Below are positions 15,564-34,064 of a stretch of DNA of 43,652 nt, piece after piece (position 1 is the first letter of the stretch; each line of letters begins with the position of its first letter). Source of the DNA: a virus; UHGV virus genome UHGV-0201380; one strand, 5' to 3'. The notes beneath the pieces were generated by a model, which saw only the letters and a list, made by a program, of their open reading frames with translations, ran no database searches and was not told the DNA's origin. Made by a program: the position numbers and the translations under genes.

Positions 15564-15960
15564 CCTGCTGCCCCTTCTTCCTGAACAGCTTACGAATCAC
15601 CAGAATGACCACTAGGAAGACCAGAGGAATACTGGCCCCAGCTAATCCGGCGAGGATAAGACTGTAACTATCATTGTTAACCACCTGCAGGCGTTCTGCC
15701 TGGATTGTCCCGGTGCTAATAGTTTGCACCTGCTTCTTACTGGACGTGTCCAAAGTGCCTACGTTAGAATCCTGTACATCAGTTTTGTTGGTGGTGCTGG
15801 AGTCCACCTTGTTATTCAAGCCAACGGTTTGTTTGGTGTTCTCGGCACCAACCTGAGCAGATACATCCGGCTTAGAACCAACTAAGCCGGTGAGTGCAGA
15901 GGTCGCCGAGCAACCAGTCAGAGTAACCGCGAGCAGCAACCCAGCGACCAGTTTACGCAT
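15556..15960 (-). CDS. Spanin, unimolecular-type topology (lipoprotein with C-terminal TMD)
   Basis: 134 aa. N-terminal signal with lipobox LTGC (MRKLVAGLLLAVTLTGCS) and C-terminal TM segment (LILAGLAGASIPLVFLVVILVI) followed by basic residues. No separate i-spanin or embedded o-spanin seen. Confidence 0.5.
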   Translation of the reverse strand: MRKLVAGLLLAVTLTGCSATSALTGLVGSKPDVSAQVGAENTKQTVGLNNKVDSSTTNKTDVQDSNVGTLDTSSKKQVQTISTGTIQAERLQVVNNDSYSLILAGLAGASIPLVFLVVILVIRKLFRKKGQQDD

Positions 15961-16142
15961 TAGCTAGCAGCCTCCACTGCGGCCACCGCGGCTTCAAGCG
16001 CAGCAATCTTGGTATCGAAGGCAGCACCAGTCTGGGCCACGTTCTGCGGCTGCGTAAGGATAGCATACAGGTCCTTACCGAGAATGTTCAGCTGACGCAA
16101 CAGCTCCTGCTGTTGCGCTGAGGTTGCTTTTGCAATTGCCAT
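15960..16142 (-). CDS. Hypothetical small Ala/Gln-rich protein
   Basis: 60-aa ORF between the terminase module and the lysis cassette; translationally coupled to the spanin gene. Confidence 0.4.
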   Translation of the reverse strand: MAIAKATSAQQQELLRQLNILGKDLYAILTQPQNVAQTGAAFDTKIAALEAAVAAVEAAS

Positions 16143-16153
16143 GTGTACTCTCC

Positions 16154-16528
16154 TTATTCTGCCGCATCAGTGGCGGCTACGAATGCACTCTGCAGTGCAG
16201 TGAACGAATCATCAAACGCTGTACCGGAGCCCTCACCGAGCGGCATACCTGTACCTGTAAGGGCAACGTAGCCGGTCTTAGAGAGCTGTGACAGCATGCT
16301 GAACAGGCGCGCCTGCAGCGTACCGTCATCCTTAAAGGCTGTACCGGCACGGGTAGCCGTATAGCCCTGGGACTGCATGTACGTGAAGAACGCGTTCAGC
16401 TTAGTCAGGGCAGTCGTACCTACGAAGCCTACGTTGTAGTCCGGCTGCACCTGCTTCTCCAGGTTCTGGCACGTGCCTACAATGGCGTACTGGACGTCCG
16501 CAGTTTTAGCTGCGATGATTGATGCCAT
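16154..16528 (-). CDS. Hypothetical protein
   Basis: 124-aa ORF immediately downstream of the large terminase. No recognised domain. Confidence 0.5.
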   Translation of the reverse strand: MASIIAAKTADVQYAIVGTCQNLEKQVQPDYNVGFVGTTALTKLNAFFTYMQSQGYTATRAGTAFKDDGTLQARLFSMLSQLSKTGYVALTGTGMPLGEGSGTAFDDSFTALQSAFVAATDAAE

Positions 16529-26696: not shown

Positions 26697-29057
26697 TTAA
26701 ATTCTCCGTCTGCGTTGGTTGTAGCGCAGGATATACGAGATATCCAGCACGTTCAGTTCCATAGAACCCTCAGTAAATAACGTCACCTCGGTTGTGTCTG
26801 CGTTAGTACGGCACGGCACGGTAATCGTAGCCAAGTCCATACGCAGGGCCTGCCCAAGCGTTAGCTCCTTTGAGTTCATCAAGATACCGGTTAGTTCCCC
26901 ACCCCAGTTGACGTCCCGTGGGGTGTCTAGTACCTGTACATCGAAGTGCCCAGAGTTACGTACTGCTACGTCCAGGCGCAGCAGGCGCACGTGCCCACTT
27001 CCCACTAGCTTGTCATTCTGGTCCCGTAGAATAGGCGTAGTTAGAGTGAACGTACTGCGGTAGCGTCTCCCAATTACGTAGGTGCCATCAGGTACACCAC
27101 GCACAACCCGCAGGGTGTTCTCCCCGGCAATCTCCTTGATGCCAACCTCAGTAGGCCCCATAGGGTTGCTGGGCAAGTACGTTAGGATAAGCTCTTCCTT
27201 GTAGTTGTCAGCCCACCCGACGGGGCGCAGTACCGCCGGAACAGTAAACACCCCATCCTGCACTTGAACTTGCTTCTGCAAATCCGAGTAGGCTTCGCGG
27301 TACTCCGAACCCAGCTGATAACCTTCACGCGGGTCCATAGACACAATCAAAAGCTTGTTGCTGGGACTGGGCCCTTGCATATACAAGAACACCTCATCCT
27401 CCAGCGCCTGCACGCTCAGGATTGGATATGGGAACGTCCATTTATGCCACGACGCTTGCATCTTAGTACCATCACTCCCACCCCACATAAACTCATAGAC
27501 CAGCAGGTTATTTCGCTCTCCGGACATTCGTGAGAAGGCCATATTGGTGACACTGGAGTTTTGCATCTGCAATACCCTGCCGGGAATGTACCGCGGCAGG
27601 TGCACCGTGGCGTCCTGCGTAGTGTACTGCGCCGCAGTATATGGTGATGGGATTAGCTCCAGTATACCCGCGTAGCTGTTGTTGCGCTTATTCGGGTAGA
27701 TTACCGTCTGCCCCGCCATTACCGGAGTCACACGGCTATCACACTCGTAGGTGCTGGTGATGCTAATACTTGCGTTAGTGGGGGTGAGTACCGCTGAACC
27801 CGGCACAACCGCCTGCATGCTGTTAGCAAACAGGACCAAGTCCCGGTTGAACTGCACAGCGGTACGATACACAGAATCCTGTGCAGACGCAGAGCTAATG
27901 CTGATACGGTCCGTATCCAGCAGAGACGTCACAGTGGAGCGGTAGAAGCGCTGGTACAGACCTGAGGCAGACATATCCACGGAGCTACCACTAAGCAGAA
28001 CCAAGCGGCCCTGGAAAGCTGCAATGCCGGTGATGTATCCATTCTCCACGAATCCGGGGTCGCTGTTATTGTCGTCGTTACCAGCTAAACGCCCCTCCCA
28101 ATCCCGCGCAATAATGTTGTCATCTGCAGCAAGCTCTCGGGGCATGTTCGTAATCTTGGTGATGCTGCCGTACGCTCCCACCTCAGACCAGGTGCGGGTG
28201 CTGTAGCTGAACTGGTACCACGCTGTCTCAGACGAGGCTGTACCTACACGACACATCGCCCCGTCAGCTTGCGCTGGGAGCTGTGCAGGTAGGTCCTGCT
28301 CCTGGTCTACACGAGACTGGTTGGATACCCCAGCATAAGTATCGCCAGCGTCGGAGGATACCACACAGTTGCTCAACCCATAGAAGAACAAGTATGCGCC
28401 GCGTACGCTAACGTTCCCAGCTGGCAATCCATTCGCTACAAGAGAGTCTCGCAGCTGCTGAGCAACGTAGGCACCTGATACCTCCTCAGCGTTACCACTG
28501 GTACTGCCAGCAGCTGGGGCGGTGTAGTCCCCGGAGTAATCTACCCCGGCAGATGTAACAGTGACGTTCCAGCGTTTCTGGAATGCTGCAGATTTAACGT
28601 AGAAGAACCCAGTGGTGCCTGGGTCAATACGCCCCGTATTGTCCACGGTTGTGTTCGGGGCCATCTCCGTATTCAGGATATAAGTCAGTCCAGCAATACT
28701 CGCGGTCTGCAAAGAGGTCTGACCCACGGCGGTAATAAAGTACGGGTCGTTTCCGGAGTTAAGGATGGTCTTTCCATTCTTAGCCAGTAACCACCAGTTA
28801 CCGTTGCTGGTGTTAATCAGCAGGTGCCTACCGTCAGTTCCACGCTCTACGTATTCAGTGAACAGGGAATCAAGCCCTGGATTATCAATCGTGCTTTCCC
28901 AGACAATCTCACCCGGGGGTCTGCGGCGGATACCGGAAACCGGGTCGCTGAGCATGTTCAGCTGCGCCCCCAGTTGTCCTGGTTGGCGCTCTCTCGGAAC
29001 CTGCTGGGAAACGCCCTGCAGCAAGCTCTGAATAGTACCTTCTAATGATTGCGCCAT
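26697..29057 (-). CDS. Tail tubular protein B (T7 gp12-like)
   Basis: 786 aa, directly downstream of tail tubular A; size and position typical. Confidence 0.85.
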   Translation of the reverse strand: MAQSLEGTIQSLLQGVSQQVPRERQPGQLGAQLNMLSDPVSGIRRRPPGEIVWESTIDNPGLDSLFTEYVERGTDGRHLLINTSNGNWWLLAKNGKTILNSGNDPYFITAVGQTSLQTASIAGLTYILNTEMAPNTTVDNTGRIDPGTTGFFYVKSAAFQKRWNVTVTSAGVDYSGDYTAPAAGSTSGNAEEVSGAYVAQQLRDSLVANGLPAGNVSVRGAYLFFYGLSNCVVSSDAGDTYAGVSNQSRVDQEQDLPAQLPAQADGAMCRVGTASSETAWYQFSYSTRTWSEVGAYGSITKITNMPRELAADDNIIARDWEGRLAGNDDNNSDPGFVENGYITGIAAFQGRLVLLSGSSVDMSASGLYQRFYRSTVTSLLDTDRISISSASAQDSVYRTAVQFNRDLVLFANSMQAVVPGSAVLTPTNASISITSTYECDSRVTPVMAGQTVIYPNKRNNSYAGILELIPSPYTAAQYTTQDATVHLPRYIPGRVLQMQNSSVTNMAFSRMSGERNNLLVYEFMWGGSDGTKMQASWHKWTFPYPILSVQALEDEVFLYMQGPSPSNKLLIVSMDPREGYQLGSEYREAYSDLQKQVQVQDGVFTVPAVLRPVGWADNYKEELILTYLPSNPMGPTEVGIKEIAGENTLRVVRGVPDGTYVIGRRYRSTFTLTTPILRDQNDKLVGSGHVRLLRLDVAVRNSGHFDVQVLDTPRDVNWGGELTGILMNSKELTLGQALRMDLATITVPCRTNADTTEVTLFTEGSMELNVLDISYILRYNQRRRRI

Positions 29058-29066
29058 AACCTCTCC

Positions 29067-29627
29067 TTAAACCATAAAACGAGCGCGGCGGATTCTACGA
29101 GCAAAGCGGGTCTTGCTGGTGCTGAATCTCTGGTTGCGCAGATGCTCACGCAGCACCATGCTCTTGTAGCGCTCAGCTTCCTGTGCGTAATTAGCGTAGT
29201 TACTGTCGCCGCCCAGGTCGTTTAGATACACCTGTGCAGTGGTGTAGTTAGCCACCCACATAGCCGCATGCTCCGGCAGGTCCTCAAAGTCCAAGTCCAG
29301 GACTATTTTGAGCTTAACGGAGCTGTCGAAGTACTGGTTCTGCTCCATAAGGTCGTACAGGTTCCCATCACGGACCCCGTATTTGGAGTCAGAGCCAGCA
29401 TCGTACACGGCCAGTTGGTTCCACGGCACTTTAATAAAGCCGTCAGCAGTAGGGGCAACTTCACGCTCGACCACGTTAAACCAGAACCCTGTGCTGAGCA
29501 GCCCGCGCCGATTGCGCGCAAGCGCAGAGCGAGCTAACCCAGCGCTTGGGTTGCTGGTGTTGATGTCCATAACGCGGGACTCCCCCAGGGCTTCCAGCGT
29601 CAGGTTCACAGCGTCTAATTCTCTCAT
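29067..29627 (-). CDS. Tail tubular protein A (T7 gp11-like)
   Basis: Track ORF extends to 29702 through the terminator. The ATG at about 29627 (MRELDAVNLTLEALGE) follows an AGAGGAA Shine-Dalgarno, giving about 186 aa, comparable to T7 gp11 (196 aa). Confidence 0.85.
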   Translation of the reverse strand: MRELDAVNLTLEALGESRVMDINTSNPSAGLARSALARNRRGLLSTGFWFNVVEREVAPTADGFIKVPWNQLAVYDAGSDSKYGVRDGNLYDLMEQNQYFDSSVKLKIVLDLDFEDLPEHAAMWVANYTTAQVYLNDLGGDSNYANYAQEAERYKSMVLREHLRNQRFSTSKTRFARRIRRARFMV

Positions 29628-29672
29628 ATTTGTTCCTCTATTAAAGACCCCTTGGACCCTTAAGACAGGGAC

Positions 29673-29709
29673 AAAAAAAAAGCCCCTGGCACCCGAAGGC
29701 ACCAGGGGC
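29673..29709 (-). terminator. Intrinsic (rho-independent) terminator, T7 Tphi-like, minus-strand specific
   Basis: Minus-strand RNA forms GCCCCUGGUGCC-UUCG-GGUGCCAGGGGC: a 12-bp stem with two G-U wobbles and a UUCG tetraloop, followed by U9. On the plus strand the wobbles are C/A mismatches. Sits 6 nt after the stop of the 115-aa ORF. Confidence 0.8.
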
Positions 29710-29714
29710 GCGTA

Positions 29715-30062
29715 TTACTGTTTGTTAACAGGCTCGAACACGTTACACTCAACAGTTCTAGCTGCTGCGTTAAACGTAAAACCCCGAAGACCCATAACAT
29801 CCACCAGATATCGGCACAAATCAAACACGTGCTTAGGTTCCCGGGTGTGGGTGCCGCTTACTACGTACTGCTCAACCCTAACAGGTACAGCCTGCTTTAA
29901 CATGGCCTCTGAGATGATGCGCAGAGCATTGGCTGTACTGTCCCCAGTGCAGCGTTTGTGCCACACCTCTGTGCCGTACTCTACACCACCTTGGGTTATG
30001 GCCTCCATGCGGGTCATACCGGTTATAATGTTACGGATATCTTTCATAGGTTTCCTCATCAA
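29715..30062 (-). CDS. Hypothetical protein encoded between capsid gene and terminator
   Basis: 115-aa ORF (MMRKPMKDIRNIITG...), no recognised motif. Co-transcribed with the capsid gene upstream of the terminator. Confidence 0.55.
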   Translation of the reverse strand: MMRKPMKDIRNIITGMTRMEAITQGGVEYGTEVWHKRCTGDSTANALRIISEAMLKQAVPVRVEQYVVSGTHTREPKHVFDLCRYLVDVMGLRGFTFNAAARTVECNVFEPVNKQ

Positions 30063-30096
30063 ACGGAACTAGGCAGGTTCAATTGCCGTTAACTGT

Positions 30097-30279
30097 TTAC
30101 TCTTCCGTAGTATCAGCGGCTGCGTCAGCCGCCTTACGGGTTTTCTTGGTAGCCTTGCGGCCAGATTCAACCGAAGCCACCTGGATGTTCTTCGCTACAT
30201 CGGTGGCGGCCTTAACCGCCTCCCGCTGAGCTGCATTGGCCTGGAGAGTCTCCAGACCGAACGTAGCGATTACTGCCAT
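30097..30279 (-). CDS. Hypothetical small Ala/Lys-rich protein downstream of capsid gene
   Basis: 60-aa ORF starting 12 nt after the capsid stop. Confidence 0.45.
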   Translation of the reverse strand: MAVIATFGLETLQANAAQREAVKAATDVAKNIQVASVESGRKATKKTRKAADAAADTTEE

Positions 30280-30290
30280 TGAACCTCCAA

Positions 30291-31310
30291 TTAGGACTTG
30301 GTGGTGAGGGTGAACTTGGTCACTGCAGCGGTGTCTGGACGACGCAGGCCGATGTTGTACATCGCGTAGCAGTCCAGTACGTTGCTGAACTCGCGCGTAT
30401 CGTCCCAGATACGGGAGGTGAACGGCTTGGCCTCAACAGTCACCAGGGTCTTGGACTTGCTGAAAGTCACCATACGGCACAGCGCGTCGTCAGGGGTGAC
30501 GGTGTAAGCAGAGCCCAGCGGGTGCGTACCAGCAGCGGTCGGGAACTCAGTGCACTCTACTACAGGCACTCCGTTCATCTTCACTACACGGCGGTCTTTG
30601 TAACCGTCGTTGTTGGATGCACCAAAGTCCAGGTTCAGGAGCTTCGGATGCTCCAGCAGACGCGAATAGGTATCGACATCCACCAGGGTAATCATGTCCG
30701 CCAGCGGAGTCTTACGCTTGATGAGCTCATCAATACCAGCCTTGTGGGCCAGGTTGATGTTCATGGCGTTCGCTTCCATCTCAGCCTGGGTCAGCTGCGT
30801 GGCGGTAGTGGTGCCCGGAACCAGGATAGAGGCACCCACTTCGATACCGTCGTTGAATGCCGGTTTAAGGTGCTCCGGAGCAACCCAGGAGCGGCCCTTG
30901 ATGAGCTGAATCAGGTGCGCCTGGTCGAAGGTCTCCGCGAACTCCGAGCCGTTGTTCTGGCCCATCTCAGTCAGGAAGTCCGGACCGGTCCAGTCATCCT
31001 GGTAGTCAATCGGGTTACGGATATACAGCACCGTATCCACCACGATAATCATCTTATCGTTACGGACCGGGGTGCTATCCAGCGCCTCGCCAGAGCGACG
31101 ACCCTTCACCGAAGAGGTGTTCAGGCGGTCAATACGGTAGGTATTGGAACCGCTGATAGAGCGCTGGCTGGATAGGCCCAGGAACAGAGCCTGGTACTGG
31201 AAGCGGGTGTCTACTTCATTCTGATACACTTCCAGGTGAATGTCTACATCAGATGCCGCGCCGCCCCAATGGGCTCGGGTCAGGGCGCTTTTATAGATAG
31301 TATCTGCCAT
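30291..31310 (-). CDS. Major capsid protein (T7 gp10-like)
   Basis: 339 aa. C-terminal CYAMYNIGLRRPDTAAV resembles T7 gp10 AKYAMGHGGLRPEAAGAV. Position after the scaffolding gene. Confidence 0.9.
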   Translation of the reverse strand: MADTIYKSALTRAHWGGAASDVDIHLEVYQNEVDTRFQYQALFLGLSSQRSISGSNTYRIDRLNTSSVKGRRSGEALDSTPVRNDKMIIVVDTVLYIRNPIDYQDDWTGPDFLTEMGQNNGSEFAETFDQAHLIQLIKGRSWVAPEHLKPAFNDGIEVGASILVPGTTTATQLTQAEMEANAMNINLAHKAGIDELIKRKTPLADMITLVDVDTYSRLLEHPKLLNLDFGASNNDGYKDRRVVKMNGVPVVECTEFPTAAGTHPLGSAYTVTPDDALCRMVTFSKSKTLVTVEAKPFTSRIWDDTREFSNVLDCYAMYNIGLRRPDTAAVTKFTLTTKS

Positions 31311-31335
31311 ATCTTACTTTTCCTTTTAAATGAGA

Positions 31336-32178
31336 TTAAAGACCTACGCGCTTACCGGCTTCACGGCGTGCGAGCAAATCGTTATAACGTTGACTGAACT
31401 GTGGGGATGCCAAGCTACGGTTGCCCGCTTCCTGACGGAGTTTGGTGTACTCTGCGCGGAATTCCGCAGCAGATAGTGCATTGTTGCTGGCTACACCGCG
31501 TACCATTGGGTTCTGTGTCTTGATAAGACCCATATCCCGGCAGAAGCTTGCTACCAACTCAGCGGCCTGCTTGAGCTCACCCGAGTTAGCGAGTACACGA
31601 GCTGCGTTACGCAGAGGTTCAGGGGCCTTGGAATTAAACAGCTGCGCTGCTACCTCCCAGTTCTCCTTACCACCCACGATATCGTAAGCTTCCTGTACTG
31701 CTTTGGTGGCTTGGCCAACCTGGTCTTCCAGGTACGCCTTGGCCAGCAGCTCTGCATAAGCAGCGTGCTCGCCGAAACGTTCCTTAATGAAGGCCGTATC
31801 GATTAGGTTAGGGTCCTGGTACTCCAGGGCCTTACCAAGTGCCCGCACCATATCAGAGTCAGTTAACCCAGAGACTTTCTGCAACATAGCTACACCGGCG
31901 TCAATCGTCGGGTTGCCAGTCTTAGCCAGCTCCTGGGGCTGCTCTTTAGCGCTATCGCCACCCTTATCCAGGGCCGCTTTTAGGGCTTCGATATCCAGAG
32001 GAATCTTAGCAGGGTCAGGGGAATCTTTGCCCTGTTGCTGCTGGGTAGGTGTCTGTGCATCCTGCACGCCTTGATTGTTCGGGGCGCTAAGGGGAGCACC
32101 TAGGCCCGGAATCTTAGGACCACCTTGGTTCTCTACCTGTGTAGTTTCTACGTTTTGACCGTTTTCTACGTTATCCAT
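31336..32178 (-). CDS. Capsid assembly scaffolding protein (T7 gp9-like)
   Basis: 280 aa, Gln/Ala/Glu-rich, between portal and capsid genes. Confidence 0.75.
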   Translation of the reverse strand: MDNVENGQNVETTQVENQGGPKIPGLGAPLSAPNNQGVQDAQTPTQQQQGKDSPDPAKIPLDIEALKAALDKGGDSAKEQPQELAKTGNPTIDAGVAMLQKVSGLTDSDMVRALGKALEYQDPNLIDTAFIKERFGEHAAYAELLAKAYLEDQVGQATKAVQEAYDIVGGKENWEVAAQLFNSKAPEPLRNAARVLANSGELKQAAELVASFCRDMGLIKTQNPMVRGVASNNALSAAEFRAEYTKLRQEAGNRSLASPQFSQRYNDLLARREAGKRVGL

Positions 32179-32192
32179 CTATGCCTCTGTTG

Positions 32193-33788
32193 TTAACTTG
32201 GTAATAAGCCCAGCTGCTTACCTGCTACTGTCGGGTCCGCTGCTGTCAAGCCCTGGAGTTGGTCCTGTGCTGCACCTGCGGATACATCGGCAGACGCATC
32301 TTGAACCTGTTGCTTCTGCTGCAGCTGCTCTTCGGTGTACATGAACGGCTCGCTGACGATACCATAGGCGTCGAAGTACCAGTCTACACACGCATCCTTG
32401 TTGAAGCGCGGAGTAATCTGCTCAAGCACCGGGATAGCCAGCTGCATGGACTGTGCCGCCTCTAACAGCTTGTCCGCTGCTGCGGCCTTAGCCAGCGCAG
32501 AGGTACCTACTGTAACGTTGATGCTCACCACGCCTTCGCTGAGGTACAACTTAAAGCGAGGGTACACCAGTGCAGTGTACAGGTACGCCAGCTTACGCAG
32601 CCAGGTGTCGCTCAGGATACTGAACCCACCACCCATAGCGGCTTCCGCCTCTTTGGCGTTCTGGCGAATCTCATAAGCCGTGACACGCTCACCCTGCCGG
32701 GAGTTGCCGGTGTACATAAACGCACGAGACAGTTTCTGTTCGAGCATCTGGATGTTGCTGGCAATCCACTGAATCTTCTGGGCAGAGCCGCCCTCGTAAG
32801 CAGTGACAGGAGACTTAGTGTTTCCGTTGGAACCACCGCCGCCCACCTGCACGGCCTCCCCGGTCTCCGCCGTAGAGAACTCGTCCACATCCAGGCCAGA
32901 ACTAGAATCTACTAGTGGAATCAGCCGAGAGGCTTCGACCTCGTAGTTAGTCAGTGCTTCCGACAGTACCGATAATCGGGCAAAGTCCCCAGCGTAGTCC
33001 TCTACCAAGCCGCGCCCGTAGTGCTCGCCACTAACAAGGTTCCACACCAGCACGTTGTAGGGGAGCTCCAGCTCCGGATAGGTGCTGCTGTCCCCGATAC
33101 GGTGTCCATCGGCTTCTTGATACACCTCGTAGCTTACTACCTCTACGCCTTCCTCTGTCCGCTTAACTTTGCGACAAGCGGCAGTGTAGATATCAACGTC
33201 GCCGTATGGGTCTTTGTCACGGTAGAAGGTGTTCTGGAAATCCTCTGGCAGGTCCTGGACGCTTGTGCGCTCTCTGATAATGAGTCGCAGGACGTTCCCG
33301 CTGCCATCCCTTCGAACGGTAAAGTTACGAACTGAGTAGACGATGGATTTACCTGTCCGCTCATCAATATACTCCAACGCGTTACCTGTAACCAGCAGCA
33401 GCTTCACAGCTTGCAACTTCGCAGCATAACCGTCTTTCTCAAATACTTTCTGTGACGCTGTGTTCTCAACCTCAGCCAGCTTAGATTCTGCCGTAGCTGC
33501 ACTGCCCAGCGAACTAATGAACTCGTCCAGGTCCGAACTCTTGGAGAACCGGAAGAAGCTAGTGCCCTGAGGGAACAGTGCCCCTACAATCTTAGTGGCT
33601 GCAGTGTTGACCAGCTGCGCGCCGGTGCTCTGGTAGTCACGCTCTAGCGGTCTGCGTCTACCGTCCAGGGAATCGTCCCGGGTAAAGATAGTGCTGAGCG
33701 TCCACTGCGCGAACTTCTCGGAGGCATCCAATACACCTGCGTCCTGGTCCTTCTTAAAGAGTTCTGCTAATGTTGCTTTTTGTTCCAA
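32193..33788 (-). CDS. Portal (head-tail connector) protein (T7 gp8-like)
   Basis: 531 aa. Motif GERVTAYEIRQNAKEAEAAMGGGFSILS resembles T7 gp8 GERVTAEEIRYVASELEDTLGGVYSILS. Confidence 0.9.
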   Translation of the reverse strand: MEQKATLAELFKKDQDAGVLDASEKFAQWTLSTIFTRDDSLDGRRRPLERDYQSTGAQLVNTAATKIVGALFPQGTSFFRFSKSSDLDEFISSLGSAATAESKLAEVENTASQKVFEKDGYAAKLQAVKLLLVTGNALEYIDERTGKSIVYSVRNFTVRRDGSGNVLRLIIRERTSVQDLPEDFQNTFYRDKDPYGDVDIYTAACRKVKRTEEGVEVVSYEVYQEADGHRIGDSSTYPELELPYNVLVWNLVSGEHYGRGLVEDYAGDFARLSVLSEALTNYEVEASRLIPLVDSSSGLDVDEFSTAETGEAVQVGGGGSNGNTKSPVTAYEGGSAQKIQWIASNIQMLEQKLSRAFMYTGNSRQGERVTAYEIRQNAKEAEAAMGGGFSILSDTWLRKLAYLYTALVYPRFKLYLSEGVVSINVTVGTSALAKAAAADKLLEAAQSMQLAIPVLEQITPRFNKDACVDWYFDAYGIVSEPFMYTEEQLQQKQQVQDASADVSAGAAQDQLQGLTAADPTVAGKQLGLLPS

Positions 33789-33797
33789 GCTACCCCC

Positions 33798-34064
33798 TTA
33801 CAGGCCCAGAGGATTGCTCTGCCCTGCTTGTCGCCGTTTCTTCTGCTCAGACGTAATTGCATCTGCAGATTCAGAGGCAGCCCCTGCGGGGTCAATCTCA
33901 GCAATGTTATCTGCGGCGCTATTAGCCTCTAAGGCAGCCTGTTGTTTAGCTGCACTGGCCTGCTGCTCTGCCAAGCGCTGCTGCGCCTCTAATCCTGCGT
34001 TGTCAGTAAGGCCGAGCATGTCCGTGGCCTTACCTAACAGCTTACCTAAATTACCACCACTCAT
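33798..34064 (-). CDS. Small hypothetical protein upstream of portal (T7 gp6.7/gp7.3-like by position and composition)
   Basis: 88 aa, Ala/Gln-rich with basic C-terminus (KKRRQAGQ). Confidence 0.4.
   Translation of the reverse strand: MSGGNLGKLLGKATDMLGLTDNAGLEAQQRLAEQQASAAKQQAALEANSAADNIAEIDPAGAASESADAITSEQKKRRQAGQSNPLGL

Follow-up and report, generated by a model that had tools for sequence, protein, structure and literature searches.

A conserved core gene and an optional cargo gene where the capsid transcription unit of a KP34-like Klebsiella phage probably ends

The virus genome UHGV-0201380, a stretch of 43,652 nucleotides that we call the window throughout, is the complete, circularly permuted 43.6 kb genome of a Klebsiella Drulisvirus (KP34-like; Autographiviridae, Slopekvirinae). 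We analyzed the two open reading frames (ORFs) at positions 29715–30279, which an earlier note, made from the letters alone, had described as accessory ORFs of 60 and 115 aa inserted between the major capsid gene and the late terminator. We consider it probable (roughly 0.6) that the late transcription unit with the capsid gene of this KP34-like Klebsiella podophage has its 3' end here and that the interval holds two genes. These are unrelated to each other and of different kinds: the first, ORF60, is core, and the second, which we call ORF110 after its revised length, is cargo. The description as an inserted accessory gene holds for ORF110 only, ORF60 being a fixed core gene of the genus (KP34 gp43). 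Both are uncharacterised members of existing phage families.

Over positions 29000–31400 the window is 99.8% identical to Klebsiella phage RCIP0106 and 84–94% identical to more than 250 further records, nearly all of them Klebsiella phages. All genes of the window lie on the minus strand. The sequence, the profile matches and a hairpin scan bear out the placement of the capsid gene, the two ORFs and the terminator given in the earlier note (Table 1). The capsid unit has a single strong terminator, downstream of both ORF60 and ORF110, with a stem of 12 bp (9 G-C pairs) and T9 after it (29682–29709 plus tail; minimum free energy −27 kcal/mol, z −3.7). High late expression of both ORFs is a reasonable inference, given that they belong to the capsid unit, precede its single strong terminator and are each equipped with a Shine-Dalgarno sequence. 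The sole Rfam match in the interval is a sub-threshold match to NsiR1 on the terminator. The identical terminator sequence was listed genus-wide between KP34 gp43 and gp44 in 2015, in a study in which the late promoters of the phage RNA polymerase are undefined for the genus (PMC4411677). Our finding is mainly one of clean-up: the arrangement of the capsid unit is ordinary for KP34-like phages, is already annotated, and brings no new capsid component. The contrast drawn earlier with T7 is sound. In T7 a strong hairpin terminator (Tphi), like the one here, closes a late unit that is heavily transcribed, and no gene separates it from the capsid gene (10A/10B); phiKMV likewise has the order capsid gene, terminator, tail tubular protein A (locus L095), and the window phage differs from both.

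ORF60 belongs to the family of KP34 gp43 (KP-KP34p43) and phrog_7403, a 'hypothetical protein' of Drulisvirus, from which it does not differ at the sequence level; the match to phrog_7403 (7e-40) covers positions 1–60 of 60. The labels 'capsid and scaffold protein' and 'transcriptional regulator' given to phrog_7403 are automatic only. The family comprises 249 phage records, with 85–100% identity over aligned residues 1–40 in nearly all of them. Among 59 relatives (IMG/VR and GenBank loci), ORF60 is intact with its ATG in every case, and the sequence upstream is TGGAGG in 57 and TGGGGG in the other two. Based on 49 distinct sequences, the in-frame ratio of nonsynonymous to synonymous polymorphism (pN/pS) is 0.127, compared with 0.125 for the capsid gene. 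Four out of five control frames give values of 1.6–3.6, and the fifth, the antisense frame with third codon positions in common, gives 0.20, in line with expectation. Given the low in-frame ratio relative to the control frames, we conclude that ORF60 is a real gene; it is part of the core of the genus and not an insertion. The genus terminator begins 5 nt past the ORF60 stop in 49 of 53 relatives, as it does past KP34 gp43, and ORF60 is normally the final gene ahead of it; in the window, where the gene has the same position, the ORF110 cassette intervenes. In Klebsiella virus 2019KP1 (MT360680.2, 24627–24803) the ORF60 region lies under a 'major capsid protein' feature, perhaps because an indel or a sequencing error led to a fused call.

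A small gene at this position is also found outside the genus. Relatives with 64–82% capsid identity carry an ORF of 42–94 aa that starts 10–50 nt past the capsid stop; these distant post-capsid ORFs, which include gp38 of Shigella phage Buco and a 46-aa ORF of Proteus phage 309, have an MA[VIL][IL] N-terminus and a Lys/Ala-rich tail in common with ORF60. When a profile built from Drulisvirus sequences only was compared with 1247 six-frame ORFs from the distant loci, the top four matches were all post-capsid ORFs. The iterated profile recruits post-capsid ORFs only, among them Buco gp38 and, at 1e-4, the 46-aa Proteus ORF, and variants of the HRP29 type (66–72 aa) are borderline in this search. 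At the post-capsid position of phiKMV and PhiM1 there is no ORF60-like gene, from which we conclude that only the Slopekvirinae-like capsid lineage has the small post-capsid gene. In PhiM1, a tRNA-Ile annotation (L088:6841–6938) occupies the gap between the capsid and tail tubular A genes where an ORF60-like gene would be.

The second ORF reaches position 30062 (115 aa) when read from an upstream TTG and is 110 aa long when read from the ATG at 30047. The shorter form is preferred because GAGGAAA stands 3 bases upstream of this ATG, all homologues open with MK(D/N)I, and GenBank relatives annotate 333 nt; of the two lengths first proposed, 60 aa stands and 115 aa is probably too long. The pN/pS of ORF110 is 0.21 in its own frame and 1.6–2.2 in the other frames, and this low in-frame value indicates that ORF110 is a genuine gene.

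Out of about 250 Drulisvirus records, 17 carry ORF110 (at least 90% identity; ~7%), and it is present in one of 53 IMG/VR loci. Synteny in related phages, which the earlier note had named as a check, speaks differently for the two ORFs: ORF60 is intact in all 59 relatives, and ORF110 is lacking in ~93% of close relatives with the same capsid. In an alignment with the minimal (IME337), HNH-bearing (KpV48) and ORF110-bearing (Kp_Pokalde_001) layouts, the insert directly follows the ORF60 stop (GAGTAA) and directly precedes the terminator (TACGCGCCCC...), and AGTAA microhomology is seen at both junctions. ORF110 is moron-like in being present or absent among near-identical genomes with clean junctions. 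Its leader has no sigma-70-like site, and the cassette uses the resident terminator. In HRP29/Buco-like phages and in Proteus Novosibovirus this slot is taken by homologues with 47–51% identity, and a divergent Drulisvirus type with a 65-aa ORF60 variant has a 75%-identical copy there. Elsewhere in the window there is no paralogue of ORF60 or ORF110, and no second ORF110 copy is found near the replication genes.

Other genes use the same slot. Out of 53 relatives, 32 have ORF60 alone, 19 have in addition an HNH_3 endonuclease, one a Tad2-like gene and one ORF110. The HNH_3 homing endonuclease gene sits past the terminator, and the Tad2-like gene separates the capsid gene from ORF60. With 80.5 bits, the Tad2-like domain (PF11195) is well above the cutoff of 25 bits; it occurs in ~10 Drulisvirus genomes, adjoining ORF60 where coordinates were checked. 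In Klebsiella phage myPSH1235 it lies at L022:3538–3801, inside the capsid transcription unit and with its stop overlapping the ORF60 ATG; the other carriers are KMI6, KPPK108.1/.2, NKA196, NNA-G4, PWKp7, PWKp9B and vB_Kpn_K40PH129C1. Like ORF110, the Tad2 and HNH_3 genes are optional in the interval from the capsid gene to tail tubular A in sister phages, and ORF110 resembles neither of them. Cargo thus has a hot spot at the 3' end of the capsid operon in these therapeutic Klebsiella phages, one that holds candidate host-range and anti-defence genes and offers a natural, insertion-tolerant site for engineering.

Table 1 Features of the capsid transcription unit and related genes in the window
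Feature	Position	Strand	Remarks
Portal gene	32193–33788	−	gene of the local order
Scaffold gene	31336–32178	−	gene of the local order
Major capsid protein gene, 339 aa	30291–31310	−	phrog_267 at 3e-94; PDB 23sf_I 'major capsid protein gp17' (339 aa), E 1e-219
Shine-Dalgarno GGAGG of ORF60	30284–30288	−	4 nt (TTCA) 5' of the ATG, 2 nt past the capsid stop; read from sequence
ORF60, KP34 gp43 family, phrog_7403	30097–30279	−	phrog_7403 at 7e-40, full length
382-nt insertion (leader and ORF110)	29715–30096	−	aligned with IME337, KpV48 and Kp_Pokalde_001
Small hairpin, 5' leader of the ORF110 cassette	30072–30087	−	GGCA-ATTGAACC-TGCC
Shine-Dalgarno GAGGAAA of ORF110	30051–30057	−	3 nt before ATG 30047; read from sequence
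ORF110, 110 aa, optional cargo gene	29715–30047	−	putative winged-helix-like fold; family motif R-C-T-G-x-S/T-T ... G-F-x-F
Rho-independent terminator of the capsid unit	29672–29709	−	GCCCCTGGTGCC-TTCG-GGTGCCAGGGGC, then T9
Tail tubular protein A gene, 186 aa, first gene past the terminator	29067–29627	−	Pfam Tube 9e-25; phrog_446 1e-61
Decoration gene, 124 aa	16154–16528	−	PDB 23sf gp6 2e-71; Buco/HRP29 8eld Gp47
Decoration gene, 60 aa	15960–16142	−	PDB 23sf gp5 2e-26; Buco/HRP29 8eld Gp48

The earlier note had offered as one possibility that both ORFs are minor capsid or decoration proteins, which would coat the head at high copy number. Their position directly past the capsid gene and ahead of the terminator speaks for this, as do the size and helical character of ORF60, which at 60 aa is as long as a real alpha-claw-type decoration protein, and an unexplained 42-kDa band on KP34 gels (PMC3082699). 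We nevertheless regard the proposal as very unlikely, and its ordered-decoration form as already largely refuted. A near-identical phage has been solved in the PDB (23sf, capsid gp17; 23sg and 23sh, portal gp19). The capsid of 23sf consists of gp17, gp6 and gp5, and its chains correspond only to the capsid gene and the two decoration genes of Table 1, which map outside the interval, just after the large terminase gene. The decoration chains are the alpha-claw-type staples of PhiM1 and Ar-KM (PMC11440229; bioRxiv 10.64898/2026.05.18.726046). No PDB chain was matched by ORF60, its family profile or the HRP29-type 72-aa homologue (phmmer and hmmsearch, E ≤ 10), none was matched by ORF110 in sequence or profile searches, and hhalign of the ORF60 family against gp5 and against gp6 gave a probability of 0.1% each. 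The absence of ORF110 from most close relatives with the same capsid also argues against such a role. The known alpha-claw/alpha-paw proteins (PhiM1 gp44/gp43, Buco/HRP29 Gp48/Gp47, Ar-KM gp55/gp54 and 23sf gp5/gp6) are, like ORF60, small helical late proteins, one of them of exactly 60 aa, but their genes follow the large terminase gene, whereas ORF60 follows the capsid gene, is not in the solved shells and has no similarity to them. As the solved chains are encoded elsewhere in the genome and neither PDB nor profile similarity was found, we rejected the decoration-protein reading.

The authors of the KP34 study speculated on capsid frameshifting in connection with the extra 42-kDa band (PMC3082699). 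ORF60 would then be a C-terminal extension of the capsid protein like T7 10B, reached by a −1 frameshift, and would explain the band. Relative to the capsid gene, ORF60 is indeed in the −1 frame, which in the window is open for 51 codons upstream. Even so, we consider this reading extremely improbable and rejected it. The capsid gene has no X XXY YYZ slippery heptamer, an in-frame stop (TAA) stands directly before the ORF60 ATG in 15 of the 59 relatives, the open upstream stretch ranges from 0 to 43 codons among relatives, and it is the strong GGAGG and the ATG that are conserved instead. Thus, given the lack of a slippery site and the in-frame stops in relatives, ORF60 is a separate cistron, and the −1 frame that it has in common with the T7 10B extension is a matter of chance.

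For three genes of the window, annotated as 'hypothetical' in many of the relatives in GenBank, the counterpart is a virion protein of solved structure. Two are the decoration genes at 15960–16142 and 16154–16528; the third (33798–34064, minus strand), just upstream of the portal gene, corresponds to the 87-aa gp20 chain of 23sg.

ORF60 is a protein of 6.2 kDa. Residues 1–40 are alanine-rich and slightly acidic, and residues 41–60 hold a Lys/Arg cluster followed by an acidic end. The N-terminal segment MAVIATFG and the helix after it are conserved, and the sequence contains MAVIATFGLETLQANAAQR, NIQVASVESGR and AADAAADTTEE. The only Pfam match of either ORF is that of ORF60 to DUF6894, below threshold (E 0.22, 12.1 bits against a 24.1-bit cutoff), and PADLOC and NCBIfam gave no match for ORF60 or ORF110. 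Because ORF60 is invariantly linked to the capsid stop, is under selection like that on the capsid gene and is absent from the ordered shells, we infer that a role as a head-assembly or internal factor off the icosahedral symmetry fits its features best. ORF60 would be plentiful and associated with the head, but would take no ordered place on the icosahedral shell. Its N-terminal segment, MAVIATFG plus helix, may dock on the capsid or the scaffold, and the Lys-rich tail may contact DNA or acidic scaffold, so that the protein would act as an assembly helper or as a small internal protein that is ejected. T7 gp6.7 is a comparable small Lys-rich head protein, which serves as a lead only and not as a test. 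In the literature on Drulisvirus virion proteomics we found nothing covering ORF60.

Several points weigh against a head factor. ORF60 could be wholly non-structural, since absence from cryo-electron microscopy models is no proof of a disordered presence in the virion, and phiKMV and PhiM1, which lack an ORF60-like gene, form decorated capsids of a similar kind, so that the gene is no general requirement of this capsid type. Related observations underlie a different explanation, in which ORF60 is a late protein directed at the host (for example in host shut-off), not part of the virion and carried along on the abundant mRNA of the capsid gene. No solved virion model of window-like or related phages contains it, phiKMV and PhiM1 with their related capsids have no ORF60, and the protein is small with a disordered, charged tail. 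We consider this explanation rather unlikely. The linkage to the capsid stop is invariant across genera while the neighboring cargo varies, purifying selection as strong as on the capsid gene fits a morphogenetic partner better, and host-range factors are usually sporadic, which ORF60 is not. Whichever role it has, ORF60 is a 60-aa protein conserved genus-wide and probably very abundant, in a genus widely used for phage therapy, and a knockout would be worthwhile.

ORF110 is assigned to a family by its domain, which matches phrog_6703, phrog_25669 and phrog_18700 at 3e-15, 1e-13 and 4e-8. The match covers only the C-terminal half of profiles of 229–234 positions; the N-terminal domain of the long members is absent. 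The family, made up of uncharacterised proteins of about 100–240 aa, is spread over the Autographiviridae and includes Vectrevirus mutPK1A2 gp12, Cronobacter phage Dev2 gp4.1 and Proteus phage 309 gp43, which have the same domain and the motif RCTGxS/TT...GFxF. In SP6-like phages the distant homologues are proteins of ~230 aa, encoded between the primase/helicase and DNA polymerase genes, with the domain in their C-terminal half, whereas the window has the domain by itself, in the capsid unit; Dev2 gp4.1, from a T7-like phage, is another of the distant homologues. An exhaustive profile search retrieved 99 family representatives, mostly of 90–120 aa, none of which has a Pfam or NCBIfam name for the domain. 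The invariant residues R32, G35, T38 and F90 lie at the helix junction and in the core.

A fold search, as suggested in the earlier note, covered ORF110. The predicted structure appears winged-helix-like and was compared, on the basis of the model, with winged-helix DNA-binding domains such as SSV1 F-112 and the OmpR/PhoB-type effector domains (e.g., CssR). All BFVD matches are uncharacterised Autographiviridae proteins (TM score 0.76–0.87), and the profile search of PDB chains described above gave no match. With a shallow alignment the predicted local distance difference test (pLDDT) score is 73; a model based on 76 sequences reaches 92.5, and its fold matches are not sharper. The presumed recognition helix (residues 70–85, EPKHVFDLCRYLVDVM) is mixed hydrophobic and acidic, poorly conserved and not basic.

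A small hairpin is present in the leader of every ORF110-type cassette (30072–30087 in the window; L005:2957–2976; L089–L092 and L097–L099). Its loop, (A)TTGAAC(C), is conserved and its stems covary (GGCA/TGCC, ACGACG/CGTTGT, GGGTGG/CCACCC); 86.7% of the cells are paired, with compensatory changes in four out of six pairs, based on only five distinct sequences. All ORF110 cassette leaders also keep TTTGATGA(A/G)GA. The hairpin may be an attenuator, a processing site or an operator. In a simple scan, the leader hairpin of Proteus phage 309 scores as terminator-like. We also considered whether the loop ATTGAACC is a phage promoter consensus and rejected this, as the coding strand of the window has no further copy of it.

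ORF110 would encode an accessory protein that the phage can do without and whose target is a component of the host or a nucleic acid. Its transcription would be by read-through from the capsid gene, so that the protein would be made late and in large amounts. Of the possible roles, one in counter-defence or host takeover appears the most likely, since a Tad2-like anti-Thoeris gene takes this slot in relatives. The sharing of the slot is circumstantial support for an accessory or counter-defence role, which is plausible but unproven; of the anti-defence role proposed for both ORFs, this part survives for the sporadic ORF110, whose slot is common to the Tad2-like gene and HNH endonucleases, and the part concerning ORF60 does not. 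The usual replication-gene neighborhood of the family supports a role in replication or nucleic-acid binding instead. According to this alternative, ORF110 is not an anti-defence protein but a sequence-specific nucleic-acid-binding regulator or a replication accessory factor, for example a dimeric winged-helix protein whose target is either phage replication DNA or the palindromic element or hairpin of its own leader. The putative winged-helix-like fold is consistent with it, as are the conserved homologous domains that SP6-like and T7-like phages encode next to the primase/helicase and DNA polymerase genes and the conserved inverted repeat with covarying arms ~25 nt upstream of the ORF110 start in every cassette. 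The putative recognition helix, however, is neither basic nor conserved, the conserved residues being located in the hydrophobic core and at the junction of the helices H13–31 and H36–50; the stem has G-U pairs, which favor an RNA hairpin over a DNA operator; and ORF110 is dispensable in most Drulisviruses, with no second copy near the replication genes of the window. We hold this alternative to be possible but not probable.

The counter-defence role has its own difficulties. A slot also used by Tad2 implicates ORF110 through location only; its relatives usually lie beside replication genes, which speaks equally for a replication-linked role; and the presumed recognition helix, not being basic, makes DNA binding, one of the activities considered, doubtful. 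For ORF60 and ORF110 alike, the functional readings are drawn from position, composition and fold. A more far-reaching proposal is that the winged-helix-like RCTGxS/TT family is a new counter-defence or host-takeover module of Autographiviridae, moved in Slopekvirinae from the replication cluster into the capsid message for massive late expression under control of the hairpin, with the ORF60 family a hitherto overlooked small head factor, internal or confined to assembly, specific to the Slopekvirinae capsid operon; we regard this combination as speculative and on the whole doubtful.

Further cargo is found in the slot of related phages. An HRP29-like contig has a 71-aa ORF (phrog_3909; L089:2224–2439) between a 72-aa ORF60-type gene and the ORF110 homologue. 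In Proteus phage 309, a 31-aa ORF (phrog_12503; L005:2830–2975) is flanked by direct repeats of ~20 nt, GATTAATCTAYACAGG(G)TGGTTGA, that consist of the stop codon and the start of the leader, and a sister contig (L099) lacks this ORF. Because of these repeats and the sister contig without the ORF, the sequences suggest that cassettes may be gained and lost by recombination at the leader sequence.

In the HNH-bearing relatives, the insertion affects the start of the next gene. The HNH_3 gene of KpV48 (L002:2071–2625), like those of ~18 other loci (among them L026, L036, L045 and L057), lies on the start of tail tubular A, taking its Shine-Dalgarno sequence and its ATG (position 29627 in the window). 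In these loci tail tubular A reads ...W-F-I-R-E-L-D without an ATG, GTG or TTG, and only ATT or ATC is found, a few bases past GGGGGTGG. This pattern suggests that tail tubular A may be translated by non-canonical initiation or by coupling to the HNH stop. GenBank annotates a truncated tail tubular A of 167 aa at these loci, read from a downstream ATG.

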